This document shows positions 1 to 26,638 of a DNA stretch of 64,000 nt, one piece after another. A model generated the notes under the pieces. The model ran no database searches. It saw only the letters and a list, made by a program, of their open reading frames with translations, and had not been told where the DNA came from. Within the stretch, counting starts at the first letter, position 1, and every line of letters begins with the position of its first letter. The translations under genes were made by a program, and so were the position numbers. This stretch comes from a virus, in IMG/VR virus record IMGVR_UViG_3300020048_000062, positions 1 through 64,000 of that record; one strand, given 5' to 3'.

Positions 1-553
1 TGGGTACTGGTTGCGTATCTTGCATTGAATTTAACTTATTTACTGCAAATTCTATGAATCGTTCTTCGATTGCATCATCCAATAAAACAGAAACTTCTGG
101 GTCAATATTCAAAAGTTGCATAAATCCTGTTGGAACTTTAGGTGCTGTTTTGGTTTTCGGTCCTAATAGTTTTTTAAATACACTAAACGTGTCGTGTGCT
201 GTAGCTGCCGCACCTGCACCTGCCATAGCTGCTCCACCAGCAACTGCTGCTAATGCTCCACCCGTTCCAATTGTTCCAGCAACAAAACCAGCAACTCCAA
301 TTAATCCAATAACACACTTTAAAACATCACTACCACTATTTTTTGCATTAGCAAGTGCTTCTTCCTTTGTTTTTGAATGCGTATAAATTCTAATCGCTTC
401 TCTTAATTCGCCAACACTTAGAGTATTATCATCAATAAAGGAAGGATTGGCTCTATTAGGTGTTGGTGGTATTACAGGTGCTGCTTCCTTAATCACGAAA
501 TCGGGATTAACTTTGCCCATTACTTCAAATAGTCTTTGTTTATTATCTTTCAT
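1..553 (-). CDS. Putative capsid-internal/ejected protein with shared N-terminal leader and glycine-zipper hydrophobic segment (3' end outside window)
   Basis: Not in ORF track; read by hand from ATG at 553: MKDNKQRLFEVMGKVNPDFVIKEAAP...VIGLIGVAGFVAGTIGTGGALAAVAGGAAMAGAGAAA..., open to the window edge. Confidence 0.75.
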   Translation of the reverse strand, partial: MKDNKQRLFEVMGKVNPDFVIKEAAPVIPPTPNRANPSFIDDNTLSVGELREAIRIYTHSKTKEEALANAKNSGSDVLKCVIGLIGVAGFVAGTIGTGGALAAVAGGAAMAGAGAAATAHDTFSVFKKLLGPKTKTAPKVPTGFMQLLNIDPEVSVLLDDAIEERFIEFAVNKLNSMQDTQPVP

Positions 554-559
554 AATATC

Positions 560-943
560 TTACTTAAATCCCATTTCAGCCATTGCTTTTCTTATGTCAG
601 TCAACACTCTTGAAGTTGAAATTGCTGGATTCTCTGGTTTATAACCCAATCCAGAAAACCAAGCCTTAAATGCTTGTGGAAATTCTGTTGCAGTATTAAT
701 TCTACCCATTTTATTCTGAACACCTGTTGCAGTTTGAGTTGCTTTATTTAGTGCTTGGACATCAGTAGCTAATGGCTTCTGTGGTTGTGTTGTTGCAGCA
801 GGCGCAGTTCCACCCACGGGACTTCCAGCTTCTGGTGCTTGTGTACCACCAATAAGTGGTGCTGCTTCACTTAGTATTGTAGAATTAGGATTTAGCTTTG
901 CGAACATTTCGAATAGCTGTTCTTTAGTTGAGGTGTCTTTCAT
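560..943 (-). CDS. Putative capsid-internal protein with shared leader
   Basis: ORF 560..994; likely true start 943 (MKDTSTKEQLFEMFAKLNPNSTILSEAAP) because the late motif lies at 959-966. Confidence 0.7.
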   Translation of the reverse strand: MKDTSTKEQLFEMFAKLNPNSTILSEAAPLIGGTQAPEAGSPVGGTAPAATTQPQKPLATDVQALNKATQTATGVQNKMGRINTATEFPQAFKAWFSGLGYKPENPAISTSRVLTDIRKAMAEMGFK

Positions 944-980
944 GTGTAATGATTTCCAATAAATACTTAAAGGTATAATA

Positions 981-1134
981 AAAAAATGCACCACGTAAAG
1001 CGATGCATTTTCTAATTGGCATTAGTCAGTCCAAAAATTTACATAACCACTATCTGGCGATAAATTTTTTGAAAATCATTCCAGATTTTCCCAGACATAA
1101 CTTAATTCGATAATTAAGCAATGATTTTCTATAG
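981..1134 (-). ncRNA. Candidate structured non-coding RNA (late promoter to intrinsic terminator)
   Basis: Late motif at 1135-1142 (-). Downstream: stem GAAAAUCAUU/AAUGAUUUUC enclosing two hairpins, stem AAAAAUUUA/UAAAUUUUU, hairpin CUAAU/AUUAG, then terminator AAAAUGCAUCGC-UUUAC-GUGGUGCAUUUUUU. G-U pairs work only on the minus strand. Confidence 0.55.
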
Positions 1135-1183
1135 ATAAATACTCAATCAGTAGAAATTAAATGTAATTTATATTAAGATTTGA

Positions 1184-1191
1184 GTATTTAT
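1184..1191 (+). promoter_or_regulatory. Phage late promoter motif GTATTTAT (representative; divergent partner at 1135-1142)
   Basis: Motif recurs roughly 5-50 nt upstream of many morphogenesis genes on the coding strand. Confidence 0.75.
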
Positions 1192-1207
1192 TCTTAAAAT
1201 AGGTTCA

Positions 1208-1810
1208 ATGGATAAGAAGAATTTCATGAGAATTATAAATGAAGAAATTAAGGATTTCGATTTTTTAAACAATGACGAATCGCTTAAAGAGCAGGAAAGC
1301 ATTGATTTAATTGTAAATGAAGATTTACAAAAGCAATTTATTTGTGATTCACTACTCAATAGAATTGCCAGAATAAAAATTATTCGTGTGGATGATGCAC
1401 GTATCGGTGGAAATTGGGAAGAGCAAGACTTTGACAACGCAGATAAACTATCAATCGAATACAATGTAACTGTTGGTTATACGTATGATACGAGTAAAGA
1501 ACCATTGGAATTTGCCTTATCGTTTAACGGTGAAAATGTTGGTATTGAGGTAGCTGGTACAAATGACACTGGAAATGATATGACACCGCCTACTAATGAT
1601 TCGTGGTTCAAAAGTATAAACTGGTATCAAATTAATGTCACGTTACTTACGGGTGAAGGGGAAGAAGTTCCTTTTATAGCTTATGAAAAAGCACCACAAA
1701 ACATTCAAGACTTATTTACAAGAGAATTTCTCGAAAACTTTATATCTACTCAAACATCTATGGACGTACTTGATAAATCTAACAAGGCTGCTGTAACACA
1801 ATTCTGTTAA
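1208..1810 (+). CDS. Hypothetical late protein (N-terminal IINEE/LKE motifs)
   Basis: 200-aa ORF with late motif 16 nt upstream. Confidence 0.7.
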   Translation: MDKKNFMRIINEEIKDFDFLNNDESLKEQESIDLIVNEDLQKQFICDSLLNRIARIKIIRVDDARIGGNWEEQDFDNADKLSIEYNVTVGYTYDTSKEPLEFALSFNGENVGIEVAGTNDTGNDMTPPTNDSWFKSINWYQINVTLLTGEGEEVPFIAYEKAPQNIQDLFTREFLENFISTQTSMDVLDKSNKAAVTQFC

Positions 1811-1811
1811 A

Positions 1812-2225
1812 ATGAGTGATGAAAAAAGAAAACTATTAGATAAGATTAATGGACTTATCGACAAGCGACAAGTTGAATTACTTCAAAGATTTCCAAGTAT
1901 TCACGAAATTGATGACGGGTTTATTGTTCGATTTTTCACCGATTGGGAAAATTGTTGGCTTGAGGGAGCTGTTAAAATAAAGACTATTGTTGATAAAGAA
2001 AACCCCGATAGAACAATTCTCTTCGAATTTATCCCCAAAGGCACGATATTTCCACTAATGAAGAGAGAACACGTTCATACAATTATTTGTTTTAGTGGAA
2101 AAATTGATCTCACAATTAACAATGAAGTTTTTCACATACTACCCTATAGTAAAACACATTTAAGTTCCGATACGTTTAGTGCTATCGCATTAGATGATAG
2201 TTACATACTTATATCTAACGAATAA
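1812..2225 (+). CDS. Hypothetical protein, possible cupin-like beta-barrel
   Basis: 137 aa; FIPKGTIFP...EHVHTIICFSGKIDLTI resembles the cupin pattern. Confidence 0.5.
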   Translation: MSDEKRKLLDKINGLIDKRQVELLQRFPSIHEIDDGFIVRFFTDWENCWLEGAVKIKTIVDKENPDRTILFEFIPKGTIFPLMKREHVHTIICFSGKIDLTINNEVFHILPYSKTHLSSDTFSAIALDDSYILISNE

Positions 2226-2429
2226 TTACCATTTCTTATCCCAACATCTGGATTGCAAACTTCTAACTTTCGCAGGCATGTAACAATTACAAAGTTTGCA
2301 ATAGTTGTGTTCGCTTAATTTTTTACATGGAACGCAAATCGCCATTCTACGCTTTGCTTCTTCTTCGACTTCTTTGTTTTCGAAGACTAAATTTTTCCAA
2401 CCCTCATATATTTCTGATAATCTTCCCAT
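2226..2429 (-). CDS. Small Cys-rich (Zn-binding) phage protein
   Basis: 67 aa; RMAICVPC...CKLCNCYMPAK...CWDKKW; coupled to the upstream 674-aa gene. Confidence 0.7.
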   Translation of the reverse strand: MGRLSEIYEGWKNLVFENKEVEEEAKRRMAICVPCKKLSEHNYCKLCNCYMPAKVRSLQSRCWDKKW

Positions 2430-2431
2430 TG

Positions 2432-4456
2432 TTAACGATATATTATTCTCCCACCCTTACTTACTTGAATGTCGGGTTTTGTTAGTGATTCAATCAGCGC
2501 ATTGTGTAAAACTTCTGTTGAGCTTAATCCTTTGTCATATACTCTGAGTTTCTGGATACCACCAATAAACGGTATTGTGAAATTTTCATTGATGAATGAC
2601 ATGTGATTACCAGCAACTAAGATATCAGAAGCAGTGTATGTGAATCCAGATATATATAATGGAGCATTTAAGTTGGGTACATCAGATGTTTCAATTAATA
2701 AACCCGTTGCAATATATTTTTGACCTGAGTTTTCTTCACTCCTAATTACACTCTTGAGTTTTAACCATTTTTTCTGACCAGTAATGATTTGATTCTGAAC
2801 GTCATTGGCAACATCAGAATAATCAATCAACCTACCGTCTTGATCGAAAACTGGTTCACCTGTTACGCCATAATACATTATTCCGTCAAGATATATGTAT
2901 TGATACTCTTGTTGATCTGGGAATGGATGTAAGCCAAGTCTTTCCAACTCAGCTTTAGTCGCAGCGACAATGGGGTAGTAATATTCAACATCGTGAACAA
3001 CTGATACATCGGTAGTATCACTATACCCTAAAATCGATATCTTATTATTTATCCTATTTCCAACGTTATCCGTTTCCTTAAGGAAGCCATCGTCATATAG
3101 TGATAAATTAAAAGTATAATCTCTATTAGATATAACAGAAATTGGATGCTCGAATCTGATGAAATATGTATGATCTGTACCACCAGTATATTCAATACGC
3201 ATGGCAGTACCACTAAATGTCGTGTTGTCGGCAGTTATCGATAAGCCAGTTGTTGTACCAGTTTCGATAAGCGGATTTTTCATCAAACTAAAATTATTGT
3301 TGATATATGTCTGGTCTTCACCACCATATATCCTATATGTTTGAAAATCGTAGTGAAATGCTTTATCTAAACCAAATGAACCACCACCCCAAGTAATTGT
3401 GTAGGGCACACTCAATTGTTTTTCTCTATCATTTTTTAAACCGTGAAAGTAAAATTCAGGAAAATCCTTAATTGTCCAAACAGCACGACCATTAACATAA
3501 AACACTAATTTACCTAATCTTTGCGGTGCACAAAGAAATACATCGGGGTCTGTATTAGCGATTGGTGCATCGGGAGTGAATGTAATATTAATTATTGTAA
3601 ACCCTGTCGTAGTAATAATCGTAGATGAATAATTTTTAACTAAGAGTCCATCATTATTGATGTATCTATATCCTAATCTTTTATCTGCTGTTAATTCAAA
3701 AGCAATTAAATTATTTTTTAGATTATCTGTTTGGGATGTTATTGAATGGACAGTTTTTTTACTATATTCAGGCTGGCTGAATGCTTTTTTATTTACCTGT
3801 TTGCCTTGAATTGCGTTTAAGTAATTATCTTCGCTCGTAGTTACACCACTAAGTATTGTCATTCCACTATATGTAGTAGTACTCGCAGTAATACCAGTAA
3901 TAGTTTCACCACTATGTGTTGGGATATACTTATCACCAGCACGTGTACCCATTGTATAGAAAATACCTTGTGACTCAGGATATATGTTTAATATGGTTTC
4001 AATCGTTATACCTAAGTTATATCTTGATGGAAATAGTTCATAATTATAATCTTGTAGCTTAAAGAATCCATTTAAAAATCCGCCTTGCGTATCAAAGTAA
4101 TTCCCATTTGTACCACCAGTAATTGCATTAATTGTAAGAAAAGTAGTTGTGGCAGTTAGACCACTTGTCTGACCCGTAGTTGGATTCATAACTGAATTAT
4201 ACCCAACTCTATACATTGAGAACAAAGTATCGTTAGGAGTAAGCGTAATGCCACTCCACATGCAATTCATTCTACCATTATCAAAACCTGTTAATCCAAA
4301 GTCTATTAAATTAAGGTTATCTGAGACAGCACCACTCCATTTAGTCAAACTAAAGGTAGTGAGACCAGTATTATAATCCCATGACTTAACATTTGTTAAG
4401 TCAATGTGAATCGCCAAATTATCGACAATTATATCATTCAAACATTCTAAACTCAT
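2432..4456 (-). CDS. Virion structural protein with LamG/concanavalin-like segments
   Basis: 674 aa, Thr/Gly rich; LVFYVNG and GGIQKLRVYDKGLSSTEV resemble LamG motifs; late motif at 4475-4482. Confidence 0.6.
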   Translation of the reverse strand: MSLECLNDIIVDNLAIHIDLTNVKSWDYNTGLTTFSLTKWSGAVSDNLNLIDFGLTGFDNGRMNCMWSGITLTPNDTLFSMYRVGYNSVMNPTTGQTSGLTATTTFLTINAITGGTNGNYFDTQGGFLNGFFKLQDYNYELFPSRYNLGITIETILNIYPESQGIFYTMGTRAGDKYIPTHSGETITGITASTTTYSGMTILSGVTTSEDNYLNAIQGKQVNKKAFSQPEYSKKTVHSITSQTDNLKNNLIAFELTADKRLGYRYINNDGLLVKNYSSTIITTTGFTIINITFTPDAPIANTDPDVFLCAPQRLGKLVFYVNGRAVWTIKDFPEFYFHGLKNDREKQLSVPYTITWGGGSFGLDKAFHYDFQTYRIYGGEDQTYINNNFSLMKNPLIETGTTTGLSITADNTTFSGTAMRIEYTGGTDHTYFIRFEHPISVISNRDYTFNLSLYDDGFLKETDNVGNRINNKISILGYSDTTDVSVVHDVEYYYPIVAATKAELERLGLHPFPDQQEYQYIYLDGIMYYGVTGEPVFDQDGRLIDYSDVANDVQNQIITGQKKWLKLKSVIRSEENSGQKYIATGLLIETSDVPNLNAPLYISGFTYTASDILVAGNHMSFINENFTIPFIGGIQKLRVYDKGLSSTEVLHNALIESLTKPDIQVSKGGRIIYR

Positions 4457-4533
4457 TTTCTACAGGAATTTATAATAAATACTACAATACTTTAATTAAT
4501 AATTACGTATTTATGTAAAATGTTATAATTGCA

Positions 4534-5706
4534 ATGATAAAGGACAGTAAACAACGATTATTCGAAATGATGAATAGAGTTGGTGGTATGCCATTGGTTG
4601 AAGAAAGCACAAACATGCCTAATTTACCTGTTGGTATTACACCAGAAGACTTCATACCATTAGATGACTACATTAAAGAAGTTCCTTGTACTACTGAAAT
4701 TAAGGAAGATAATCCAACCGAATTTGGTGCGAAAATTAATAAAGTTCCAGATATACAAAACTTATTAAATAAGAAAGATACTGAAATCACCAATAAGCAT
4801 CAGAATTATAATACAGGTGGACGTATTCACGCAGGAACTATTGAAGACATTAAAACAGATGATAATAATTTTGACATTGAAAAACTTAAAACAATACTCA
4901 GTCAAAAGCCTGATACTAAGCAATTCTTAACACAAAACAAGAAAATGGGTAAATCCAATTTCTTCAACGTAACACTACCAGCATTTAAAGGATTAATATA
5001 TAATCAAGCAGACGGTGAATTTTATGTTGTAGATGTTTGTAGTAAAGCAGGTGCATGTTTACGTGATTGCTATGCTCAAATGGGAAGATACATTATGTTT
5101 GACGCAACAGTTAGACTTAATACTCAAAAACTAAACTATTTGATGAATAATTGGAGTGAATGGAAGCAAAGAATGATTACAACAATTAAAGCATTAAGTT
5201 GGGGTGGTGGAGCTGTAATACGTTGGCATGATTCAGGTGACTTTATATCTGAAAAATATCTACAAATAGCATATGAGATTGCAAAAGCAACTCCCGATGA
5301 TAACCACTATGCTTATACCAAGGAGGTTGGGATGGTTTTAAATTCCGAAGTACCCGATAATTTCGAATTTAAATTCTCATATGGTGGCACACAGGATGCA
5401 ATGATTGACCCAAATCTTCACGGTCATTCGAGAATAGTTCCAGAAGAATTATTTAAAGACTTACAACCTAAAGATACTGGCGAAGGTTGGAACTTTAGTC
5501 CAGAAGCTATTGAAATTCTAAAAGACAGAGTTGTAAAACAATATGGTTTAAGTAGAGATATTTTACTTACAAACCAAGAATTAATGAACATACCATACAA
5601 TAAAAATGCACAAAGAAAATGGATTGTATTGAATTGGAGTGGTAATAATGACGTTCCTGCATTAAGAAGGGATGTATTAGCGGTGTATAATTTGAAACAT
5701 AGATAA
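4534..5706 (+). CDS. Gp88-like (Cys-cluster, radical-SAM-like) protein carrying the shared N-terminal leader
   Basis: CSKAGACLRDCYA, IRWHDSGDF and HYAYTK match the phage Gp88-type pattern; N-terminus MIKDSKQRLFEMMNRVGGMPLVEE; late motif at 4507. Confidence 0.65.
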   Translation: MIKDSKQRLFEMMNRVGGMPLVEESTNMPNLPVGITPEDFIPLDDYIKEVPCTTEIKEDNPTEFGAKINKVPDIQNLLNKKDTEITNKHQNYNTGGRIHAGTIEDIKTDDNNFDIEKLKTILSQKPDTKQFLTQNKKMGKSNFFNVTLPAFKGLIYNQADGEFYVVDVCSKAGACLRDCYAQMGRYIMFDATVRLNTQKLNYLMNNWSEWKQRMITTIKALSWGGGAVIRWHDSGDFISEKYLQIAYEIAKATPDDNHYAYTKEVGMVLNSEVPDNFEFKFSYGGTQDAMIDPNLHGHSRIVPEELFKDLQPKDTGEGWNFSPEAIEILKDRVVKQYGLSRDILLTNQELMNIPYNKNAQRKWIVLNWSGNNDVPALRRDVLAVYNLKHR

Positions 5707-5738
5707 AATAAATAAAATAAAATTTTAAAACAAGTATT

Positions 5739-6221
5739 ATGAAAAAAGATAGTAAAACAAGACTTTTTGAAGTTATGGGTAGGTTGGATAAAACGTTCAA
5801 ACCAAGATTAAATGAAGAATTTGAACCAGCAAGTCCAGTTGCATTCAAACAGCCAATGGGCGGTGCTGAAATGGGCGGTGAAGAAAAAATCGAACAAACA
5901 CCAGAAGAAAAAATCGAAGCATTAACTGCAAAGGTTGATGAACTTTATGCTATGCTTCATGGCGAAGAAGAATCGGGTGAAGAAACTGGTGAAGAATCGG
6001 GTGAAGAAACTGGTATGGAAAATCTTCGAGAATGGAATTTCGACAAGAAAAAAGGCGAAAAGACAGAAGATGACACTAAAGAGCACGAAGATTCAGAAAC
6101 AGCAGGAGAAGAGAAAGCTGAACACGAAAAAGGCGGTGAAGAAGAACTTAAGGAAGAAACATCTACAGATGCTCCTAAAGCTAAGATTCCAGTTAACATG
6201 ATTGCCAAAGTAGGTAAATAA
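5739..6221 (+). CDS. Acidic prohead core/internal protein with shared leader
   Basis: MKKDSKTRLFEVMGRLDKTFKPRLNEE; Glu-rich; LNE, LRE and LKE sites. Confidence 0.7.
   Translation: MKKDSKTRLFEVMGRLDKTFKPRLNEEFEPASPVAFKQPMGGAEMGGEEKIEQTPEEKIEALTAKVDELYAMLHGEEESGEETGEESGEETGMENLREWNFDKKKGEKTEDDTKEHEDSETAGEEKAEHEKGGEEELKEETSTDAPKAKIPVNMIAKVGK
5967..6014 (+). repeat. 24-bp tandem duplication (EESGEETG x2)
   Basis: gaagaatcgggtgaagaaactggt repeated twice. Confidence 0.9.
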
Positions 6222-7370: not shown

Positions 7371-9641
7371 ATGAAAAACAACACCAATAAAGACGCTTAT
7401 TTAAAAAGACTTAGGGACTTAGCCGATGTCAATAAGACCTCAATTAAAGAATCACAAAACCGTACATTAGGTACACTTATTGATTTCGTAAGAGCAGCCG
7501 ATGGTGTTGCCTATGGTATCGTTCAAGAAAATCACAACTACTTTCTAAAAAGGGGTGGAACAAAGGAAAACCCCAATGTATCTGATTTTGCTTATATTGG
7601 CGGTTTAGCTAATATTACTAATTACCAATACAAATCATTGGGTGATGCAGATAAAAATAGAAATATGATTTTGCATACCATAAATGAAGCTAATACCACT
7701 AAGGTTAATCCTAATGGTAGTACAAAAAAAATACTTAATGAAGACCGTGCAGGTCAAGCAATTGATAACGCACAAAATATGTTGGGTGATTTAGATGCTG
7801 CAAGTGCTGCTAATCAAGGTGGTGGAGAAGGCGAAGCTGAAATGGCTGCTGGACTAACTGCTGAACCACAAGGTGGTGAAAATGCAACACCACCAGCACC
7901 AGAAGCTGCACCAACAGATGCTCCAGCACCTGATATGGGCGGTGGAGCACCAACAGATGAACCAGCACCAGATATGGGTGGTGAACCAGACTTAGGTGGT
8001 GGAGAACCAGATATGGGTGGAGAACCAGACTTAGCAGATGCTGGTCTTGATGGTGACTCTACTGGTGATGACGCTGGTATGGCTGGTATGGCTGGTGATG
8101 CTGATGCATTAGCAGTTGACGAACCACTAAAAGAACTTGAAAAAGGAATTGGTAAGATTACTAATACTATAAGAAAAACCGATTTAGAACCAGAAATGTC
8201 AAAATCGTTCTTAAAATCATTTATTCAAGCATTCAGAGATAAACTTCCTGAACTTGAAATCGAAGAAAGAAAAGAAATTGCAAACATGTTACTTAAAATA
8301 GTTCCACCAGAAGATGTTGAGAATTTAAGTGATACTATGCCACCAGAAGAAACAGGTGATGAAGGTATTAAAGAAGAAGAGGGTTGTTCAGAATGTGGTA
8401 CATTTGCACAATATGCTGAATCAATGGGTTACGATACTGCTGAATCACTTATGGAGTGCGGTGAAGAAGGTGTAGCCAACTTAGTTAGTAATTATGCTAA
8501 TCACGCTGCTGATGGTCAGAATGACGGTGATGCAGAAAGCGTAGCATTAGTAATTAAGGTTATCAATCCAGAAATGTTGAATACTTTGAAAAACGATTAT
8601 GGTCACGAAGATTATGCAAATAAACTTGAACCAATGGTTAATTCAATGTCAGAAAGTACTGATGAAGATAATATGACCAAACTTAATGAATTATTCGGTG
8701 GCTTGCGTGGAGCAATGGGAAGCATAGGTAAAGGAATTTCAGGTGCAGCACAAGGTGTTGGTAAAGCAATTAGTGGTGCAGCAACACAAGCAGGACAGGC
8801 AATTGATAAAGGTGTAACTAACGTTAAACAAGGATACCATAGTGGTGAAGTTGCTGGCGAAGTTAAAAAACTTGAGGGACTTGCAAACAATTTAGGAGCA
8901 CAAGTTGCTGCTTTAAACGCAAGATTGGTAAAAGCTGGTCAAGCACCAGTTGATGCAAATAAGATAATTGCAGCAATATCTAACCAAATTAGAGCAGGTA
9001 AAGGCGCAAGTCTTGCTGGAACAACTGCTGGTGCAGGTGTGGGTCAAAGACCAGTTGCAGAAGCATCAGCATCAGACCCTGCATATACTGAAACTCAACC
9101 AACAATGAACGAAGATAATGACGAATTGGAAGGAATTGAAGGTTTAGAAACTGGTAATGACAGTGGCGCAGAAGAAATGGAAGCGGGTATTGAAAACGAG
9201 CCAGAAACAGAAGAAAAACCAGAAGAAATTAAATTCGCTGGCGCACAATCGTTAGGTGGTGGTGTTATGAAACCAGATGGTGCTCCTACTACAATTAGTG
9301 TTACCTCACAAAACGGAACAGCTGTTGAAGTCAGTTTGAATGAAGTTATGAAAAAACTTAAACAAGTTGTAGCCGAATCAAAACCATCCACAGAATTATC
9401 GAAAGATAATAAATCGAAAACTGGTGGAGAGATTACTAAAAAGGGTAATGAAGATGAAATTATGACTGAAAGTGAAAAGAAAATCAGAGCATATGTTCGT
9501 AAACGTCTCGAAGAACAATCAGGTTTGAGAAAACCAAGTTTGAATGAAGACAAAAAATCGACAACACTTAAAAGACTTGATGAAATCATTGACAAGCAAT
9601 TTAGTAACTACAAAACAGTAGTAAATAAAAAAATGAAATAA
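7371..9641 (+). CDS. Large acidic prohead core/internal head protein
   Basis: 756 aa, D/E/G/P-rich with PDMGG repeats and many (L/I/M/V)-x-E sites; late motif at 7320. Confidence 0.65.
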   Translation: MKNNTNKDAYLKRLRDLADVNKTSIKESQNRTLGTLIDFVRAADGVAYGIVQENHNYFLKRGGTKENPNVSDFAYIGGLANITNYQYKSLGDADKNRNMILHTINEANTTKVNPNGSTKKILNEDRAGQAIDNAQNMLGDLDAASAANQGGGEGEAEMAAGLTAEPQGGENATPPAPEAAPTDAPAPDMGGGAPTDEPAPDMGGEPDLGGGEPDMGGEPDLADAGLDGDSTGDDAGMAGMAGDADALAVDEPLKELEKGIGKITNTIRKTDLEPEMSKSFLKSFIQAFRDKLPELEIEERKEIANMLLKIVPPEDVENLSDTMPPEETGDEGIKEEEGCSECGTFAQYAESMGYDTAESLMECGEEGVANLVSNYANHAADGQNDGDAESVALVIKVINPEMLNTLKNDYGHEDYANKLEPMVNSMSESTDEDNMTKLNELFGGLRGAMGSIGKGISGAAQGVGKAISGAATQAGQAIDKGVTNVKQGYHSGEVAGEVKKLEGLANNLGAQVAALNARLVKAGQAPVDANKIIAAISNQIRAGKGASLAGTTAGAGVGQRPVAEASASDPAYTETQPTMNEDNDELEGIEGLETGNDSGAEEMEAGIENEPETEEKPEEIKFAGAQSLGGGVMKPDGAPTTISVTSQNGTAVEVSLNEVMKKLKQVVAESKPSTELSKDNKSKTGGEITKKGNEDEIMTESEKKIRAYVRKRLEEQSGLRKPSLNEDKKSTTLKRLDEIIDKQFSNYKTVVNKKMK

Positions 9642-10376: not shown

Positions 10377-12779
10377 ATGATTGACGATAAAAATAAAGTT
10401 ATTCCCGAACCAGACGAAGACGAGATATTTCCCGACCATGTTCCTTTAGTCCCAATTGATATAAGAAGACTTGAAGAAAAAGAAGCTGTACGTAAGTTGG
10501 CAGAAGAATTGAGAAAGAAATCTGCAAAGATTGAACCAATTATTGTAACAAAAGACGGTATTGCTAAAAGAGCCAGTGATTTAACAATGACCGAAAAAAC
10601 ATTTGAGATATTGCGTTGTGCCATAGACCCAGTATATTTCATTGGAACATACCTAACAATTTTTGACCAGACCCAAGGTACAGCGGGTATGATTGTACCA
10701 TTCAAATTATTTGATTTTCAAATTGAATTAATTAATACTTATAGAGAAAATAGATTTGTTGTTGCTAACAAGTATCGTCAGGCAGGTATTTCCACAACAA
10801 CTTGTGCATATATCGCATGGTATATTATGTTCAACGAAAATAGACAGGTTGCTATCGTAGCAGATAAACTTGAGACTGCCCGTGATGAAATCATGAGTGA
10901 CGTTGTTTTATTTATCGAAGGTTGTCCAGATTGGCTTAGACCTAAAACTGGTAAGGAGTCTAAAGACAAATTTAAAGATACTCAAAAGCTTAAGATTTAC
11001 GATAATAATTCCAAGTTAGGTGCTTTCAGTTCAAAGGGTCTTCGTGGTATGACACCAACATTGATTTTTTGGGATGAAACTGCTTGGACTGAAAAGGGAG
11101 ATAAATTCTGGACTGCTGCAAAGCCAACATTAGGTACTGGTGGTGGAGCTATTATGGTTTCAACTCCTTCTGGTCTTGATGCCGTGTTCTACAAGCATTT
11201 TGAAGGTGCTAGAGCCATTGACCCCGAAACTGGTAAAAGCAAAAACGGTTTTAAAGCTGTTGAACTTTGGTGGTTTAATGACCCACGTTATAATAAAGAT
11301 TTGGCATGGGTGAAGAATAAAGGTAAGGAAACTGAACATAGATTAATTGACGGTAATTGGGATAATAAGACCAGAATCAATATGATGTATGATGGGTGGG
11401 AAGCCACATCACCTTGGTTTGAAGAACAAATTGAGGGTGCTAACGGTGATATGCGTAAGATTGCACAGGAGCTATTGTGTATTAATTTTGATTCGCTGAT
11501 TACAGTTAGAAATAAAAACACTGGTGTTATTGAAAATATTAAAATATCTGATTTATATGATAGGTTGAACGAACAAAAAAATTCTTGTGAGTATTTATAT
11601 AGAAATACAATTCTAATGGATAAAAATATCTTAATAAAATTACTTAAAACTATTGAGGATGTTAATCAATATTACATTAAAGGTGGAACATCTAAGTTCA
11701 ATAAAGACTATCCAAATATATTAAACCTAATAAATATCTATACTTCTGAGATGCAAATTTATTCGTCAAATAAAATATTAGAGGCTAAAATTAAATATTT
11801 AATAGGCTATGGCGGTGACATTAATAAAATAACAATAAATGACAATGTTTTAATATTTGACAAGTATTTAAAGCAATTTAAAGTCGCAAACATTAATTCA
11901 GCAAAAAAACAATGGGAAAGTTGTAATAATGATTTAAATAATATAAATGAATTGTATGACGAAAACACCACCAGAGAATTATTGAAGGATTCGTATTTAA
12001 ATTATTTTGGAAAGTCAGGAAATAGAAAGCTATTGAGAGACGATAAGAAATTATTTCTAAGTCTATATTCACATACAAAAGAGTTTGATTTATTAGAAAA
12101 AAATCTAAATAAATTTTCATTTAGATTACATTTTTTTGTTAATAAAATTAATACGTATTGTGAAAAACATAATTATCTTAAGCATTGGAAATTAGTTGAT
12201 GGAAATGTGGTTGTTGTGTGTTCTAAATGTAATCCCAAATATCCATCAAAAGAATGGTATATTGAAAAATACTCTAATGATTGGAAAATTTATAGTGATG
12301 AAAGAAAAAAACATTTATCCGAATTAAAAGTAAATGGAAAGGAATGGCATATTGAAAAATATGGAAATATTGTTGGTGCTGAAAAATATTCTGAAAGTGT
12401 TGTGCAAAGAATTAACAACATATCTAAATTAAAAGGAAATAAATTCAGTAAAATATCTCAAGAATTGTTCTGGAAACTACACGAGTCCTTAAACGATAAA
12501 ACAGACACATATTTTCATGACTTGAATAAAGAATATGTGATTAAAATACCTGATAAATATAATCATGAAAATATTGTAATGATGTTGGATTTTAAACATA
12601 AAAATAAAATCATTGAATATAATGGTAATTATTGGCATAATTCCAAAAAAGATGATATTAGATATTCAATATTAAGAGAAATGGGTTATGAAATATTGGT
12701 CGTGACATCAGACGAATTTAATCGAAATAAAAAGCCAAAAGAAATTATCGATAAATGTCATAAATTTTTAACATGTTAA
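10377..12779 (+). CDS. terL: Terminase large subunit N-part (ATPase) + split intein N-fragment + fused endonuclease
   Basis: NKYRQAGIST (Walker A), LIFWDE (Walker B), MVSTP (motif III); then QELL|CINFDSLITVR (intein block A at 11478). Confidence 0.9.
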   Translation: MIDDKNKVIPEPDEDEIFPDHVPLVPIDIRRLEEKEAVRKLAEELRKKSAKIEPIIVTKDGIAKRASDLTMTEKTFEILRCAIDPVYFIGTYLTIFDQTQGTAGMIVPFKLFDFQIELINTYRENRFVVANKYRQAGISTTTCAYIAWYIMFNENRQVAIVADKLETARDEIMSDVVLFIEGCPDWLRPKTGKESKDKFKDTQKLKIYDNNSKLGAFSSKGLRGMTPTLIFWDETAWTEKGDKFWTAAKPTLGTGGGAIMVSTPSGLDAVFYKHFEGARAIDPETGKSKNGFKAVELWWFNDPRYNKDLAWVKNKGKETEHRLIDGNWDNKTRINMMYDGWEATSPWFEEQIEGANGDMRKIAQELLCINFDSLITVRNKNTGVIENIKISDLYDRLNEQKNSCEYLYRNTILMDKNILIKLLKTIEDVNQYYIKGGTSKFNKDYPNILNLINIYTSEMQIYSSNKILEAKIKYLIGYGGDINKITINDNVLIFDKYLKQFKVANINSAKKQWESCNNDLNNINELYDENTTRELLKDSYLNYFGKSGNRKLLRDDKKLFLSLYSHTKEFDLLEKNLNKFSFRLHFFVNKINTYCEKHNYLKHWKLVDGNVVVVCSKCNPKYPSKEWYIEKYSNDWKIYSDERKKHLSELKVNGKEWHIEKYGNIVGAEKYSESVVQRINNISKLKGNKFSKISQELFWKLHESLNDKTDTYFHDLNKEYVIKIPDKYNHENIVMMLDFKHKNKIIEYNGNYWHNSKKDDIRYSILREMGYEILVVTSDEFNRNKKPKEIIDKCHKFLTC

Positions 12780-13096
12780 TAAATATTGAATATGAAATAC
12801 TAAATTCTTCTGGTGACTTTGTTGATTTTTTAGGTGTTGAGAAATCGGATAAGGTAAGTGGACTGAAAATCACATTAGAAAATGACATGTCAATAACTGT
12901 TAGCGAAGACCACATTTTTCTCGCAAACGGAATGGATATGTATGCAAAATCACTAATACCTAACGTTGCATATCTAACAACCATAGATGGGGATTTTTAT
13001 GTGAAGTCAGTTGAGTCTGTGGATAATTGTGAATTTTATGACATAGTAGATTCAGAAAATTGTGAATATAATGCAAATGGGGTTTCAAACCATAAT
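11478..13096 (+). mobile_element. Atypically split intein in terL with intervening endonuclease
   Basis: IntN starts at Cys (11478). IntC is the first 108 aa of ORF 12773, with TVSEDH (block B), FYDI (block F) and NGVSNHN|C (block G). Removal restores KIAQELL-CSFLGSG. Confidence 0.88.
11616..12779 (+). CDS. Vsr/DUF559-like PD-(D/E)xK homing endonuclease (internal start)
   Basis: FSKISQELF...MLDF...IIEYNGNYWH...DDIR...MGYEILVV; EWYIEKYG repeats; own GTATTTAT at 11591 before in-frame ATG at 11616. Confidence 0.7.
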   Translation: MDKNILIKLLKTIEDVNQYYIKGGTSKFNKDYPNILNLINIYTSEMQIYSSNKILEAKIKYLIGYGGDINKITINDNVLIFDKYLKQFKVANINSAKKQWESCNNDLNNINELYDENTTRELLKDSYLNYFGKSGNRKLLRDDKKLFLSLYSHTKEFDLLEKNLNKFSFRLHFFVNKINTYCEKHNYLKHWKLVDGNVVVVCSKCNPKYPSKEWYIEKYSNDWKIYSDERKKHLSELKVNGKEWHIEKYGNIVGAEKYSESVVQRINNISKLKGNKFSKISQELFWKLHESLNDKTDTYFHDLNKEYVIKIPDKYNHENIVMMLDFKHKNKIIEYNGNYWHNSKKDDIRYSILREMGYEILVVTSDEFNRNKKPKEIIDKCHKFLTC

Positions 13097-14059
13097 TGTT
13101 CATTTTTGGGTTCAGGAGATAACTTCATTGCAGAAACATACCTAAAACGTATTCAAGAAGATGAAGTTAAAGTTCCTATTCGTCAAGAATATGTAGACCT
13201 AAATATGTGGATTTGGGAAGACCCAATTGCTGGTGAAGATTATATCATGGCTTGTGACGCATCAGCAGGTCACGGTGAAGATAATTCTACAATCAATATA
13301 TTGAAAACCATTGAGATAATCGAAGAAAAGGTAATAAAAAAAGCAGGTAAAGAACCAAAAAAAGTAAAAATAAAAAGACATAAGGTTGAACAAGTTGCAG
13401 AATACTATGGAAAAGTAACACCACAAACATTGGCAGAGATTGCATATACATACGGTAGATCATATAATAACGCATATTGTGCTATTGACGTTACTGGTGG
13501 TTATGGTATACAAACAGTTGAAAAATTGCTTGAAGCAGGGTATGAAAATGTCCATTATGCCGAAGTAACACACAAGCCAACAAGAGACAGATTATCTGGC
13601 TATATAAAGAAAGGTCAGAAAGTTATGAGTGATGGAGCAGTGATGAATCTTGACTTAATCCCCGGTTTTTTCATTGGAAATAACCGTCCATCAGTCCTAC
13701 TTGAAATGCAAAGAGCTATCCATTTAGAAGATGTAATCATTAGGTCTGTTAGATTATTAAATGAACTCAAGACCTTTGTTACAGTTGCAGGTAATAGAGT
13801 TGCCGACCACAAGCGTAGTTTCCATGATGATTCGATCATGGGATTGGCAATTGGTTTGTATGTTCTTAATTTTGATATGGCAAGATTTAAACAAAGTAAG
13901 GGAATTACTGAAAAGATGATTGCAGCACTTATAACCAATAACGACATTAAAGAAATGGCAAAGGGAAGACCCATGGTATCACCAAACAGTACTTCACCAC
14001 ATAATCCATATCAAGCAAATGCATGGCTATTTAGTGGAATTAAAGATAGAAACCGATAA
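12773..14059 (+). CDS. terL: Split intein C-fragment + terminase large subunit C-part (RNase H-like nuclease)
   Basis: After HN|C: SFLGSGDNFI, YIMACDASAGHGEDNS, FHDDSIM. Confidence 0.9.
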   Translation: MLINIEYEILNSSGDFVDFLGVEKSDKVSGLKITLENDMSITVSEDHIFLANGMDMYAKSLIPNVAYLTTIDGDFYVKSVESVDNCEFYDIVDSENCEYNANGVSNHNCSFLGSGDNFIAETYLKRIQEDEVKVPIRQEYVDLNMWIWEDPIAGEDYIMACDASAGHGEDNSTINILKTIEIIEEKVIKKAGKEPKKVKIKRHKVEQVAEYYGKVTPQTLAEIAYTYGRSYNNAYCAIDVTGGYGIQTVEKLLEAGYENVHYAEVTHKPTRDRLSGYIKKGQKVMSDGAVMNLDLIPGFFIGNNRPSVLLEMQRAIHLEDVIIRSVRLLNELKTFVTVAGNRVADHKRSFHDDSIMGLAIGLYVLNFDMARFKQSKGITEKMIAALITNNDIKEMAKGRPMVSPNSTSPHNPYQANAWLFSGIKDRNR

Positions 14060-22589: not shown

Positions 22590-23291
22590 ATGAGCAAAAT
22601 ATTACAAGCTGGTGAAAATGGGTTCGGTATATTAATCGAACACGATGCAGGGTATCTAAACAGCGATTTAAATCCAATGTTTATTAATGAAGCGTTTGAG
22701 CTTAAACCAAATGAGCCTGTTTTAGTTAACTGTATTTTACAGAAGTGGGGTGTAAAGAATAAAAATGGACGTATCTATCCAAAAGACGTTTTAGTTCCAC
22801 AGGTTGCAGCATATCAGCTATTAGTTGACTCCAATAGTGCAGTATCGGAAGCCGATCATCCAGACAGTAGTATAATTTCCTTACAGAATATTTCACACAT
22901 GGTTACTAAAATGTGGTGGGGTAAAGGTGAACAAGAAAACGTTTTATATGGACAGCTAAAAATAATTGTAAGTCAAGGTTATATTAAATATGGTGTAGTT
23001 TCAGTAGTGGGTGACAAGATTGTTCTCTACATGCAAAACAAAATAAGATTAGGTATTTCATCACGTGGTGTTGGTACATTGAAAGAAATCCAAGGTGAAA
23101 ATCTTGTTCAAAATGACTTCGAACTAATTGGTTTTGACTTGGTTAGCACACCAAGCACCCCCGGTGGTTATTTGTTTCCTGACCAAAAAGGTGACACTTC
23201 TTTTGGTGAAAGTTACGTACAAAAGAACGGAATTTTCTTAAAAGAAGAGGAAAATAAGATTATCTCAGCTACTAATAGGTTTCTATTGTAA
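22590..23291 (+). CDS. Prohead core protease (T4 gp21-like)
   Basis: KNKNGRIYP, EADHP, ISH, LGISSRGVG, FDLVSTPS. Confidence 0.93.
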   Translation: MSKILQAGENGFGILIEHDAGYLNSDLNPMFINEAFELKPNEPVLVNCILQKWGVKNKNGRIYPKDVLVPQVAAYQLLVDSNSAVSEADHPDSSIISLQNISHMVTKMWWGKGEQENVLYGQLKIIVSQGYIKYGVVSVVGDKIVLYMQNKIRLGISSRGVGTLKEIQGENLVQNDFELIGFDLVSTPSTPGGYLFPDQKGDTSFGESYVQKNGIFLKEEENKIISATNRFLL

Positions 23292-23411: not shown

Positions 23412-24938
23412 ATGAAAGACGAAAAAAAATCATCAATAATAAAAGAAGCTTTAATTGACTACAATACAATTGCGGAAGCTGCTGCTGATAATGCTAAAAA
23501 AAGATTAGCAACAGAGTTTCCAAATAGCTTTACGAAATTGTTGAAAGAAGAATTAAATAATAAAAAAGCAAAAGAGTCATACAAGAAAATTGACGATGCT
23601 CAAGAATCTGATAAGGATAAGACTAAATTAAACAAAGAATCTGATATGAAGAATCAAGTTAAAGAGACCGTAACGGTTACAAACACAGTTGGAAAAGGTG
23701 AACCCTTCGACCAAAAAGCCAAAAAAGTACAGGAAGACGTAAAAGTTACCAATACTGTTGGCAAAGCAGACCCTTTCACTGAAAAGAAAAAAGGTGCTGT
23801 AAAGATTGAAGAAGAACGTGAAAAGGAATTTATGGCTGACGTTGAGAGTGATACTCCCAACCAAGGTAAAGGCGAACTTGCAAAAGGTGTTGCCTTCAAA
23901 GAAAAAATTAAAGCTCCTACAAGCGGAACACCAATGACTAACTTAAAAGAGACTTTTGACTTATCAGGACTTGATATGGGAAGCGTTGAAGAAGGATTGG
24001 ATAATGCAGGCGAAGACGACATGATTTCGATTGACGAAATCGAACAGGAAATCGCTAACATGGAAGGAAGTATGCAAGAAGAAATCGGTGGAATGACTGG
24101 TTTACCACAAGATAAAGCCGCTGGCTCACCAGCAGGTCAAGGTGGAGACGCTTTCAACCAGAAACTTATTGCCATGAGAAATGAACTTGATGAAATGATT
24201 AAGGGCGTAACTGGTGGTAGTTCAGAAGAAGAAGCATATCCAGAAGTAGAAGCTCAACCAGAAAGTTCACTATACGAAGACGAAAACATCACTGACGATG
24301 ACATTAATAATGTCTTAGGTGGTGGTTCAGAAGCTCCTGTAGATGAACAATTAGGTGTGTCACACGCAACCAACAGGAACATGACAGCTTCATTACCGGG
24401 GAACGATTATGTTAGTCCTCAGCAACTTAGCAGGAGACGTGAAGGTTTGCAAGAAGGTATTAAGATTGGTAGTTTAATTGAAGAAAACAAGAAATTGACT
24501 AAGAAATTAAACGAAGATAAGAAATACAAACAGTCTGTATCAACTTTAGTTGAACAGTACAAATCTGCACTCGAAAAGTATCGCAATCAATTGAAAGAAA
24601 TGGCAGTATTTAATACTAATTTGGCTCACGTTAATAATTTATTGGTAAACGAAAGCTTGGCATTAACTCAAGACGACAAAATTAAAATTATCAATGGTTT
24701 TAAAACCGTTGGTAGCATATCTGAATCACAAGAAAAGTACACTTCGCTACTTACTGAAATGAAAGGCGCAAAGAAAACTATTAGTGAAAGCATTGTGGAC
24801 AAAGTTACAACCTCTGTACAGCCATCCTCAAAGCAGAAACTTGATGAAGTTGTGGAAAAAACAGCCTATGCAAATAATAGCCACATTCAAAGAATGAAAG
24901 ACGTTATTAATTTGATAGAAAAAAGAGGAAAAAAATAA
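23412..24938 (+). CDS. Prohead scaffold/core protein (gp22-like position)
   Basis: Acidic coiled coil between protease and MCP; many L/I-x-E sites. Confidence 0.75.
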   Translation: MKDEKKSSIIKEALIDYNTIAEAAADNAKKRLATEFPNSFTKLLKEELNNKKAKESYKKIDDAQESDKDKTKLNKESDMKNQVKETVTVTNTVGKGEPFDQKAKKVQEDVKVTNTVGKADPFTEKKKGAVKIEEEREKEFMADVESDTPNQGKGELAKGVAFKEKIKAPTSGTPMTNLKETFDLSGLDMGSVEEGLDNAGEDDMISIDEIEQEIANMEGSMQEEIGGMTGLPQDKAAGSPAGQGGDAFNQKLIAMRNELDEMIKGVTGGSSEEEAYPEVEAQPESSLYEDENITDDDINNVLGGGSEAPVDEQLGVSHATNRNMTASLPGNDYVSPQQLSRRREGLQEGIKIGSLIEENKKLTKKLNEDKKYKQSVSTLVEQYKSALEKYRNQLKEMAVFNTNLAHVNNLLVNESLALTQDDKIKIINGFKTVGSISESQEKYTSLLTEMKGAKKTISESIVDKVTTSVQPSSKQKLDEVVEKTAYANNSHIQRMKDVINLIEKRGKK

Positions 24939-24967: not shown

Positions 24968-26638
24968 ATGGGATTTTTAATGGAATCAGCCGAAGTTGGT
25001 AATATAGGCTTAAAACAATTACGTGAACAACGTGAAATTACCACTAACCGTTGGGAAAAAATCGGTTTGTTAGAAGGACTTGATGGTAACGTTAAAGAAA
25101 ACTGTGCGCAGTTGTTCGAAAACCAGTTATCACACATGCTTAATGAATCGTCAGATTCATCAAACTCAGGTCAGTTCGAAACTGTAGCATTCCCTGTTAT
25201 CCGTAGGGTATTCGCTAAATTGCTTGCTAATGATATCGTATCAGTACAGGCTCTTAACCTTCCTATTGGAAAGTTATACTACATCAACCCTAAAACATCT
25301 GTAAGGGTAGCTGGAAGTGGTGTTCAAGCTGGCATGGACGTTCATACTTCACCTAACGGTGCTTATGGCAATGCTGCAACAAACGCAAATCCAACACAAT
25401 TCGAAACACGTTCATTGTATGATTCATTTTATGCAACTGAATATGCACAAGAAGGAACATCTTTATTTGACCGTTCAAAAGGACAAATGAGCATAATCAC
25501 TGGCGCAACAACTGGTGCATCTTATACTTATGGCGATAAATTCGTACAGGTAGTTATCCACGGCTTCTTAGTAAGCGATAGCGGAAAATTAGTAGGACCT
25601 GCTGGTGTTCAAATGGATACCGAATCATTCCTTGCTGGTTTAAAAATTAGTTCAACTGTAGATTTAGTAGCACCTGCTGGTTTTACCGACCAAAACGTTA
25701 CTGCTGGTACAGCTTTACCTTTCAACGTAAAGGTTCAGAAATACGGACAAGCAATTGTTGACAAATCAGGTAATATTACACTTGTTGTTGATATTCAGTA
25801 CGCAGGTACTAACGGATACCAACCATTAAGCGCAGTTACCACACCTGCATTCAACTTCGAATACAGAGCTTATAGTGACCTTGAAGAAGACTCACAGATG
25901 GCAGAAGTTACCTTCCAGTTAGACCAAGTAACTGTTTCCGTAGAAACACGTAAAATGCGTGCTATGTGGACTCCTGAACTTGCTCAAGACGTTAGTGCTT
26001 TCCACAACATTGACGCAGAAGCTGAATTAACCGCTTTGTTATCAGAACAAATGGCAGCAGAAATTGACCGTGAAATCCTTCGTGACTTACGTAGGGGTGC
26101 AGCTTGGACAGCACGTTGGGACTATAATGGTCTTCGTAGACAGTCTAACACCTATTACGGAACACAGAAAGACTGGAATCAGACTTTGATTACGAAAATT
26201 AATCAGATTTCAGCACAGATACATAAAGCAACACTTCGTGGTGGTGCAAGTTGGGTAGTTGTATCCCCAGAAGTAAGTGCAGTATTCGATGACCTTGAAT
26301 ATTTCCACGTTAGCAACGCTTCACCTGAACAGGATAAGTATAACATGGGTATTGAAAAAATTGGTACTTTAAGTGGACGTTACCTTGTGTATCGTGACCC
26401 TTACTCACCAGCAAACACAATCCTTATTGGTCATAAAGGAACAAGTATCTTAGAGACCGGTTACATATACGCCCCATACGTTCCAATGCAGTTAACTCCT
26501 GTAATGTATAACCCATTCGATTTCACACCAATACGTGGTATCATGACTCGTTATGCTAAGAAAATGGTACTCAACCGTTACTACGGTAGAATCTATTGCG
26601 ATGGTCTACAGACTTTCGGAATTGGTGACTTACAATAA
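24968..26638 (+). CDS. Major capsid protein (T4 gp23-like)
   Basis: FPVIRRVFAKLLANDIVSVQAL, TRKMRAMWTPELAQD, HNIDAEAEL, GYIYAPYVP, FTPIRGIMTRY. Confidence 0.96.
   Translation: MGFLMESAEVGNIGLKQLREQREITTNRWEKIGLLEGLDGNVKENCAQLFENQLSHMLNESSDSSNSGQFETVAFPVIRRVFAKLLANDIVSVQALNLPIGKLYYINPKTSVRVAGSGVQAGMDVHTSPNGAYGNAATNANPTQFETRSLYDSFYATEYAQEGTSLFDRSKGQMSIITGATTGASYTYGDKFVQVVIHGFLVSDSGKLVGPAGVQMDTESFLAGLKISSTVDLVAPAGFTDQNVTAGTALPFNVKVQKYGQAIVDKSGNITLVVDIQYAGTNGYQPLSAVTTPAFNFEYRAYSDLEEDSQMAEVTFQLDQVTVSVETRKMRAMWTPELAQDVSAFHNIDAEAELTALLSEQMAAEIDREILRDLRRGAAWTARWDYNGLRRQSNTYYGTQKDWNQTLITKINQISAQIHKATLRGGASWVVVSPEVSAVFDDLEYFHVSNASPEQDKYNMGIEKIGTLSGRYLVYRDPYSPANTILIGHKGTSILETGYIYAPYVPMQLTPVMYNPFDFTPIRGIMTRYAKKMVLNRYYGRIYCDGLQTFGIGDLQ

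Follow-up and report, generated by a model that had tools for sequence, protein, structure and literature searches.

A shared N-terminal leader on unrelated proteins of an uncultured giant phage: a probable capsid-targeting propeptide of the T4 kind

Why should proteins with unrelated bodies begin with the same short peptide? The question is raised by IMG/VR virus record IMGVR_UViG_3300020048_000062, a linear viral contig of 98,937 bases with ~33% G+C, whose first 64 kb form the stretch of DNA analysed here (the window). An initial annotation, made from the letters alone, had pointed to four open reading frames (ORFs) near the start of the window that share a leader, and had read this leader as a tag for loading diverse cargo into the prohead. 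The four N-termini read exactly as claimed, namely MKDNKQRLFEVMGKVNPDFVIKE|A (553, minus strand), MKDTSTKEQLFEMFAKLNPNSTILSE|A (943, minus), MIKDSKQRLFEMMNRVGGMPLVE|E (4534, plus) and MKKDSKTRLFEVMGRLDKTFKPRLNE|E (5739, plus), where the bar marks the presumed cut. Their bodies are indeed unrelated, with no BLAST similarity and different Pfam families, and common ancestry of whole leader proteins is contradicted by their different folds. We give a probability of about 0.7 to the reading, drawn from sequence comparison, that the peptide these proteins have in common is a capsid-targeting propeptide of the T4 kind, specific to one lineage. This reading is supported by evidence that is circumstantial, and every computational test able to break it favoured it.

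A leader profile built from 24 leaders was run on the six-frame translation of the whole contig and on related genomes, a scan that the initial annotation had suggested. It returned six matches on the contig (E-values of 2e-17 to 2e-10, the next match standing at 0.22) and showed the leader to be widespread in relatives. All four proposed genes are real, but the contig holds six: a fifth was found with a simple core pattern and a sixth with the profile, both outside the window. Each of the six leaders starts at most a few residues from a start codon, and the genes are as follows.

2..553, minus strand: leader ORF 1, at least 184 amino acids (aa), cut by the contig start; leader residues 1-23 at 485-553, ending I-K-E|A; E-value 7.6e-15
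560..943, minus strand: leader ORF 2, 127 aa from the ATG at 943; leader residues 1-26 at 866-943, ending L-S-E|A; E-value 1.1e-10
4534..5706, plus strand: leader ORF 3, 390 aa, with a GP88 (PF17338) body; leader residues 1-23 at 4534-4602, ending L-V-E|E; E-value 7.2e-12
5739..6221, plus strand: leader ORF 4, 160 aa; leader residues 1-26 at 5739-5816, ending L-N-E|E; E-value 2.1e-17
contig 76425-76868, plus strand: leader gene for an M78/IrrE-like HExxH metallopeptidase, 147 aa, outside the window
contig 76878-78440, plus strand: leader gene for a DUF5661 protein, 520 aa, outside the window

In ORF 1 the leader is followed by a Pro-rich linker and then a Gly/Ala-rich hydrophobic stretch, and searches of Pfam and PHROG with this ORF gave no match. 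The predicted mature part of ORF 2 is basic, with an isoelectric point (pI) of 9.8, and leader-bearing homologues occur in three related genomes. ORF 3 continues with a disordered linker that contains an LPxG motif and leads into the GP88 body, and ORF 4 has a very acidic body (pI 4.4) that is conserved in relatives. The two genes beyond the window adjoin and have in common a variant leader, G-S-K-E-R-L-F-E/Q-M-M...L-N/H-E.

By its sequence, the contig is part of the genome of an uncultured giant phage whose head is T4-like, because it carries a T4-type head module, has complete relatives of 320-365 kb and is distant from cultured phages. On 80 IMG/VR contigs there are proteins that match its capsid protein at 73-90% identity, and among these contigs are several complete genomes of that size with direct terminal repeats. 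The cultured phages closest by this protein are Flavobacterium phage immuto and Microcystis phage Mel-JY01, at ~40% identity over ~60% of its length. A terminal overlap of the contig was looked for and none was found, and the ORF at 553 is truncated at the contig start.

To describe the leader across this group we sampled the contig, the 21-kb capsid-gene flanks of the 80 relatives and five complete genomes, which together gave 53 distinct leader proteins. These fall into 27 clusters whose bodies have no BLAST similarity to one another, so the gene content of leader proteins turns over fast between close relatives. Pfam families among the bodies are GP88 (4534), Peptidase_M78/IrrE-like with HExxH (76425) and DUF5661 (76878) on the contig, and AAA_33/Zeta-toxin-type P-loop kinases, ART-PolyVal ADP-ribosyltransferase, Cupin_2 and DUF4313 in the relatives, where each complete genome has 3-11 leader genes. 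A profile search of 1.84 billion cluster representatives matched 568 clusters at an E-value ≤0.001 and 52 at ≤1e-10. Among the best 150 database proteins, 148 leaders are N-terminal and 16 internal, and the bodies form 41 BLAST components, the largest of which is a mosaic of small shuffled modules. Outside this group the leader was not recovered: the core pattern gave 28 raw matches in 596 Gb of prokaryote species genomes, none of them confirmed; a 30-residue leader compared by tblastn with 50,697 phage records matched only Lak phages, at E-values of 3-6 that amount to noise; and the profile run against LR756508 (484 kb), Mel-JY01 and immuto gave one match at 0.016 and nothing else. Because neither tblastn nor the profile gave a significant match, the leader does not extend to the nearest cultured T4-like phages; as judged from these searches, it is confined to one clade of uncultured phages that have genomes of 320-365 kb, a T4-type portal, an S77 protease and a gp23-type capsid protein.

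The leader itself is 23-30 residues long, with the consensus M-x-K-x-x-K-Q-R-L-F-E-V-M-x-K-V-N-x-x-F-K-x-x-L-N-E. In its core the Leu and the Phe are invariant, and Arg, Glu and Met exceed 90%. Over the 53 leaders the core Arg is written as AGA, CGA, CGT, CGG and AGG, the Leu as CTT, TTA, CTC, TTG and CTA, and the Phe as TTT and TTC. The leader is under protein-level selection, since its conserved residues use synonymous codons, including switches between AGA and CGN and between CTN and TTR. The peptide is charged, and its helix is amphipathic, with a mean hydrophobic moment of 0.61 vs 0.32 for shuffles. A Sec/Tat secretion signal is ruled out because no leader has a hydrophobic run of more than 4 in its first 30 residues, and the hydrophobic core of ~7 or more residues is lacking. 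In an AlphaFold model of the protein at 4534 (from a 40-sequence alignment; mean predicted local distance difference test score, pLDDT, 83), the leader is a lone low-confidence helix (residues 6-16), L21-V22-E23 falls in the disordered part behind it, and confident folding of the body sets in near residue 60. Pro-rich linkers such as those in the four window proteins are not a general rule, since over 51 proteins the first 25 residues past the leader show no clearly greater tendency to disorder than the bodies (0.67 vs 0.63).

The end of the leader is what ties it to head maturation. In T4 the gp21 protease cleaves after the Glu of L/I-X-E, and the first 10 residues of internal protein IPIII (MKTYQEFIAE) are a cleavable capsid-targeting sequence (CTS) that is enough to load a protein into the head (PMC9026906, PMC8442874); both points, which the initial annotation had taken as established, are in print in these papers. 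The six contig leaders end IKE, LSE, LVE, LNE, LNE and LHE, all of the form L/I-x-E. The gene at 22590, named in the initial annotation as the protease, proved to be a gp21-type Peptidase_S77 gene, and it lies in the following head module.

10377: large terminase, T4-type
14135: portal protein of the gp20 family (PF07230)
22590..23291, plus strand: prohead protease, Peptidase_S77 of the T4 gp21 type (PF03420), the presumed processing enzyme, in 5/5 complete relatives
23412..24938, plus strand: putative scaffold/core protein, 508 aa, helical and charged, with no family match; it sits between the protease and capsid genes like T4 gene 22
24968..26638, plus strand: major capsid protein of the gp23 family (PF07068), with a predicted maturation site L58-N59-E60|S61 at 25139-25147

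The capsid protein sequence AQLFENQLS[HY]M[IL]NE|S is conserved in 80/80 relatives at the position matching the LTE|A of T4 gp23, so (I/L)-N-E is the expected site of the protease of this clade. The leader ends in (L/I)-N-E, identical to the tripeptide of this predicted capsid maturation site. Among the top database matches L-N-E stands exactly 15 residues past the core Glu in 134/158 cases, a figure that is inflated in that the profile rewards the motif. Glu motifs also occur near the N-termini of two head proteins: the putative scaffold begins MKDEKKSSIIKE|A...IAE|A, that is, with IKE-12|A and IAE-22|A, and in the protease L-I-E occupies residues 15-17 and I-N-E residues 32-34, as T4 gp21 carries LIE-9 (PMC9026906). 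These motifs would fit self-processing of the protease and degradation of the scaffold.

Proteins with two leaders offer a further view of the motif. The database proteins P0001-P0012, P0025, P0050, P0065, P0093 and P0112 have the order leader-cargo-leader-cargo, with shuffled cargo modules, and some of the fusion clusters are seen on several independent contigs. After the 16 internal leaders [LI]-x-E follows in 15/16, and upstream, as read by eye from the junctions, [LIM]-x-E lies 9-16 residues before the core in 14/16 (8/10 independent junction types), with MYE, IYE, LYE, INE, LNE, LRE, MNE and MKE among the motifs. By a rough estimate such a motif falls in this upstream window by chance in ~15% of cases. 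Flanking Glu motifs are as expected if leaders were to be excised from a polyprotein. This evidence comes from database proteins; IMG/VR, scanned with fusion protein P0008, yielded no match, and the 74 leader matches in the collected loci include no internal leader.

The GP88 cargo family allows the same body to be followed beyond the clade. Among 120 GP88 homologues, 78 keep a family-specific leader, MIKDSKQRLFEMMNRVGGMPL-x-x-E, with body identities as low as ~30%. The others start with different short peptides, such as MKFKRFLAE, MRFDEHYYIE, MNFTEFYLIE, MKFSKYYFCE and MNFKELFE, which resemble the T4 CTS. A hydrophobic-x-E motif lies ≤12 residues upstream of a conserved LPPGF in 61/62 cases with the leader and 23/23 without it. 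The N-terminal peptide is thus swapped over a constant Glu junction, and therefore the same cargo bears lineage-specific leaders with an unchanged cleavage-type junction. The body has three invariant cysteines, C169, C175 and C179 (CX5CX3C), and its structural neighbours by VIA-align are spore photoproduct lyase (Z 7.9), viperin (5.9) and PFL-activating enzyme (5.6), all weak; Foldseek of the model against the PDB gave no match at an E-value ≤0.001. On these weak scores and the three cysteines, we tentatively assign the modelled body to a radical-SAM-like fold. Each of the five complete relatives (G001-G005) also has a leaderless paralogue of ~280 aa, well away from its head genes; a leader-tagged copy occurs on this contig and, among the five, in G001 and G003 only.

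Leader genes also cluster around the head genes. In the five complete genomes, 23/34 are within 40 kb of the capsid gene vs 8 expected (p 7e-8). The octamer GTATTTAT is over-represented on the contig, with 28 copies on the plus and 12 on the minus strand vs ~7-8 expected per strand, and it precedes the terminase, portal and scaffold genes. It stands 23-27 nucleotides (nt) upstream of the genes at 943 and 4534, that is, of two of the three leader-gene units.

959..966, minus strand: GTATTTAT, putative late promoter upstream of ORF 2, with ORF 1 as the second gene of the unit
4507..4514, plus strand: GTATTTAT, putative late promoter 27 nt upstream of ORF 3, with ORF 4 as the second gene of the unit

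Taken as a capsid-targeting propeptide, the leader would act as follows. Leader proteins would be made late, and the amphipathic helix K-Q-R-L-F-E-V-M-x-K-V would dock each of them onto the scaffolding core during prohead assembly, the putative scaffold at 23412 being the presumed partner. The S77 protease (22590) would then cut after the Glu of (L/I)-x-E, ~15 residues past the core Glu, so that the leader peptide leaves and the mature cargo is freed inside the head. The cargo would travel with the DNA and probably be ejected into the host. It would comprise the radical-SAM-like GP88 protein, the M78-type metallopeptidase, the DUF5661 protein and small acidic, basic or hydrophobic proteins, joined in relatives by P-loop kinases and an ADP-ribosyltransferase. 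By analogy, these types match known injected effectors, namely the ADP-ribosyltransferase Alt of T4 and the metallopeptidase and ART domains of polyvalent proteins (PMC5512222).

Several observations weigh against this reading. The L/I-x-E motif that the initial annotation placed after the core is present in 6/6 contig leaders but is not universal: in the unbiased genome-level sample [LI]-x-E is found in 30/53 and [LIVM]-x-E in 34/53. Some P-loop kinases start directly after the leader without a second site, and the GP88 orthologue of one relative lacks this site too. The near-universal L-N-E of the top 150 database matches is partly circular, because the profile rewards L-N-E. Late expression of the leader genes is putative, being read from the octamer, and the pair at 76 kb has its nearest GTATTTAT ~1 kb upstream, among neighbouring genes that are not recognisably structural. 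The predicted mature cargo is mostly acidic (median pI 5.1), and T4 internal proteins are basic. Finally, the leader is 2-2.5 times longer than the T4 CTS (23-30 vs ~10 residues) and has no significant similarity to the T4 peptide, with which it has in common only an M-K start and a hydrophobic-x-E at residues 9-12.

The missing second sites bear on the mechanism in a particular way. Because only 30-34 of the 53 leaders possess a second L/I-x-E, cleavage there is not obligatory. The core L-F-E is itself an L-x-E motif, and in most leaders its Glu lies at residues 9-12, the T4 CTS distance. In T4 a mutation that blocks cleavage leaves targeting intact (PMC9026906). Leaders without the second site may therefore keep the tag, or may be cut at the core L-F-E.

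How does the leader compare with known systems? The CTS of T4, found on IPI, IPII and IPIII and in the propeptides of Alt and gp24 and removed by gp21, is likewise an N-terminal peptide common to unrelated, fast-evolving proteins (PMC9026906, PMC8442874, PMC3012670). Both end in the L/I-X-E motif of an S77 protease whose gene lies beside those of the scaffold and a gp23-type capsid protein, and in both the cargo includes effector enzymes. Unlike the CTS, the leader is bipartite, with an L-F-E helix followed 15 residues on by (L/I)-N-E, and its cargo is for the most part acidic and enzymatic, where that of T4 is small and basic; the genomes measure 320-365 kb, and two-leader fusions occur. Since the resemblance is only generic and cultured T4-like phages give no match, we regard the leader as an analogue or a very distant variant of the T4 CTS rather than a homologue by sequence.

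In the giant phages phiKZ, 201phi2-1 and SPN3US, many head-internal proteins have N-terminal propeptides that are removed after x-x-Glu by gp21-like proteases; conserved N-termini stand on diverged paralogues, and the propeptides have been proposed to be CTS-like (PMC5694885, PMC10052503). Those propeptides are mostly 80-160 residues long and common to paralogues, whereas the leader described here stands on unrelated folds. Moreover, in phiKZ-type phages Pfam shows no capsid protein of the gp23 family and no gp22-like scaffold is recognisable, while the head module here is plainly T4-type. Polyvalent proteins contain conflict domains of the same kinds (ART-PolyVal, metallopeptidase, kinase, DUF4313), and these are predicted to accompany the DNA into the host (Iyer et al. 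2017, PMC5512222). Their domains form one giant polypeptide that is freed by its own metallopeptidase, whereas here most leader genes are separate, the head protease is the presumed releaser and the fusions repeat the leader. A looser parallel, of analogy only, is offered by the encapsulation peptides of bacterial microcompartments, in which a short amphipathic helix and a flexible linker load unrelated enzymes into a protein shell. They differ from the leader in shell, evolutionary origin and tag fate, as they are not removed by proteolysis.

Other explanations of the shared N-terminus have to be set against these data. An amphipathic helix with a linker is a generic recruitment module, and the tag might dock its cargo to a partner other than the capsid (RNA polymerase, ribosome, chaperone or membrane), the Glu motifs being incidental. 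About one third of the leaders lack a second cleavage-type site, the bodies are enzymes rather than structural proteins, and the 76-kb pair lies outside the structural neighbourhood, all as this explanation would have it. It leaves unexplained, however, why the tag is nearly always N-terminal, why L-N-E has a constant spacing and the sequence of the capsid maturation site, why cleavage-type motifs surround internal leaders, why T4-CTS-like peptides replace the leader on the same cargo elsewhere, and why leader genes cluster around the head module; we consider it distinctly unlikely. Nearer to a capsid-targeting role is the idea that leader proteins are scaffold or core blocks degraded at maturation, as are the scaffold/core components gp22, gp67 and gp68 of T4, with the leader as a core-assembly motif. 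Several leader proteins are small, acidic or of low complexity (5739, with its pI of 4.4, is an example), several Glu motifs occur within leader proteins, and the scaffold and the protein at 7371 described below have leader-like N-termini with [IV]-K-E sites. Yet many bodies are folded enzymes (kinase, ADP-ribosyltransferase, metallopeptidase, cupin, radical-SAM-like fold), and the turnover seen in 27 clusters among 53 proteins is unlike that of essential core proteins, so that we hold this idea to be improbable and place it behind recruitment to another partner. It overlaps with capsid targeting, as both place the proteins in the prohead, and the small acidic leader proteins may partly be degradable core components.

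Two further explanations remain. The leader could be a recognition sequence for a modifying enzyme, like the leaders of ribosomally synthesised and post-translationally modified peptides (RiPPs), which are also helical and N-terminal, and the radical-SAM-like GP88 protein is a candidate maturase, with a GP88-family gene in 5/5 complete relatives and a fold that resembles radical-SAM enzymes. But this candidate is itself tagged, its substrates would be folded enzymes of 100-500 residues, GP88 homologues are widespread in phages without this leader, and co-occurrence is uninformative within one clade, where the S77 protease co-occurs equally; the prospect is remote. That the conserved feature lies in the nucleotides, as a translation-initiation or mRNA element or a recombination site for shuffling cassettes, with a peptide that has no function, is scarcely credible: although the starts are A-rich (AAA AAA GAT ...), as is typical of efficient initiation regions, and the cargo is mosaic and shuffled, such a feature is contradicted by the synonymous codons at conserved residues, including switches within six-fold families, by internal copies of the peptide in fusion proteins and by retention of the leader in orthologues down to 30% body identity.

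Within a capsid-targeting role, one specific origin of the leader can be formulated. The capsid propeptide segment KENCAQLFENQLSHMLNE (residues 43-60, window 25094-25147) resembles the leader, and both end in (L/I)-N-E: its last 18 residues are K-E-N-C-A-Q-L-F-E-N-Q-L-S-H-M-(I/L)-N-E|S, and the leader reads K-D-N-K-Q-R-L-F-E-V-M-...-(L/I)-N-E|x. In hhalign, KDNKQRLFE and capsid K43ENCAQLFE51 are identical at 5/9 positions, which is not significant (E-value 0.13, probability <1%), and the leader profile did not pick up the capsid protein in the six-frame scan of the contig. The leader might have been copied from the segment by which the capsid protein itself docks and is cleaved, so that cargo imitates the part seen by scaffold and protease and can be chained as polyproteins that the protease splits; we think this unlikely. 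If true, imitation of a capsid segment would be a general, predictable rule for the contents of T4-type heads, and the segment a portable tag for a very large capsid.

Two further genes were compared with the leader. The profile against the N-terminus of the protease gave E-values of 0.23-1.8, which are not significant, and a neighbour of the window's leader genes is listed here.

7371..9641, plus strand: conserved acidic low-complexity protein, 756 aa, in 5/5 relatives, with uncertain membership of the leader family

Its N-terminus, MKxHxSK[DE]A[YF]xxRLRxLAEVNKxS[IV]KE|S (here MKxxxxKDAYLKRLRDLADVNKTSIKE|S), is leader-shaped, and its match to the profile is not significant (E-value 1.6). From its sequence, this protein may serve in the core or as an ejection protein, its tag having diverged. 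The M78-peptidase/DUF5661 pair is kept in all five complete relatives, at 46-63 kb from the capsid gene.

Other features of the head region were observed alongside. The large terminase (10377-14059) is split over two consecutive ORFs of 800 and 428 aa, and the terminase-family match is confined to the first part of the first. On the minus strand at 17025-21887, amid the head genes and between the portal-side genes and the protease, lies a gene for a 1620-residue protein with a C-terminal M23 peptidase domain, possibly a cell-wall hydrolase of the virion or an ejection protein. Genes for GIY-YIG-type homing endonucleases are present at window 26745-28247 and contig 72209-72994; the former directly follows the capsid gene, where many relatives have leader-tagged kinase or ADP-ribosyltransferase cargo genes.

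The principle of the T4 CTS has been known since 1996. Proteins inside a phage head are the first phage products to reach the host, and in T4 they include a restriction-enzyme inhibitor and an enzyme that reprograms RNA polymerase. The idea of capsid targeting is not new in kind, because variable proteins with a CTS are already known from T4-related phages (PMC9026906, PMC3012670); the gain lies in breadth and detail, not in concept. The leader tag probably marks the set of proteins that an entire clade of uncultured giant phages injects. As such, it would provide a sequence-only way of listing candidate early counter-defence effectors, it predicts mature N-termini that can be checked by metaproteomics, and it would be a second, longer loading tag for engineered protein delivery by large capsids.

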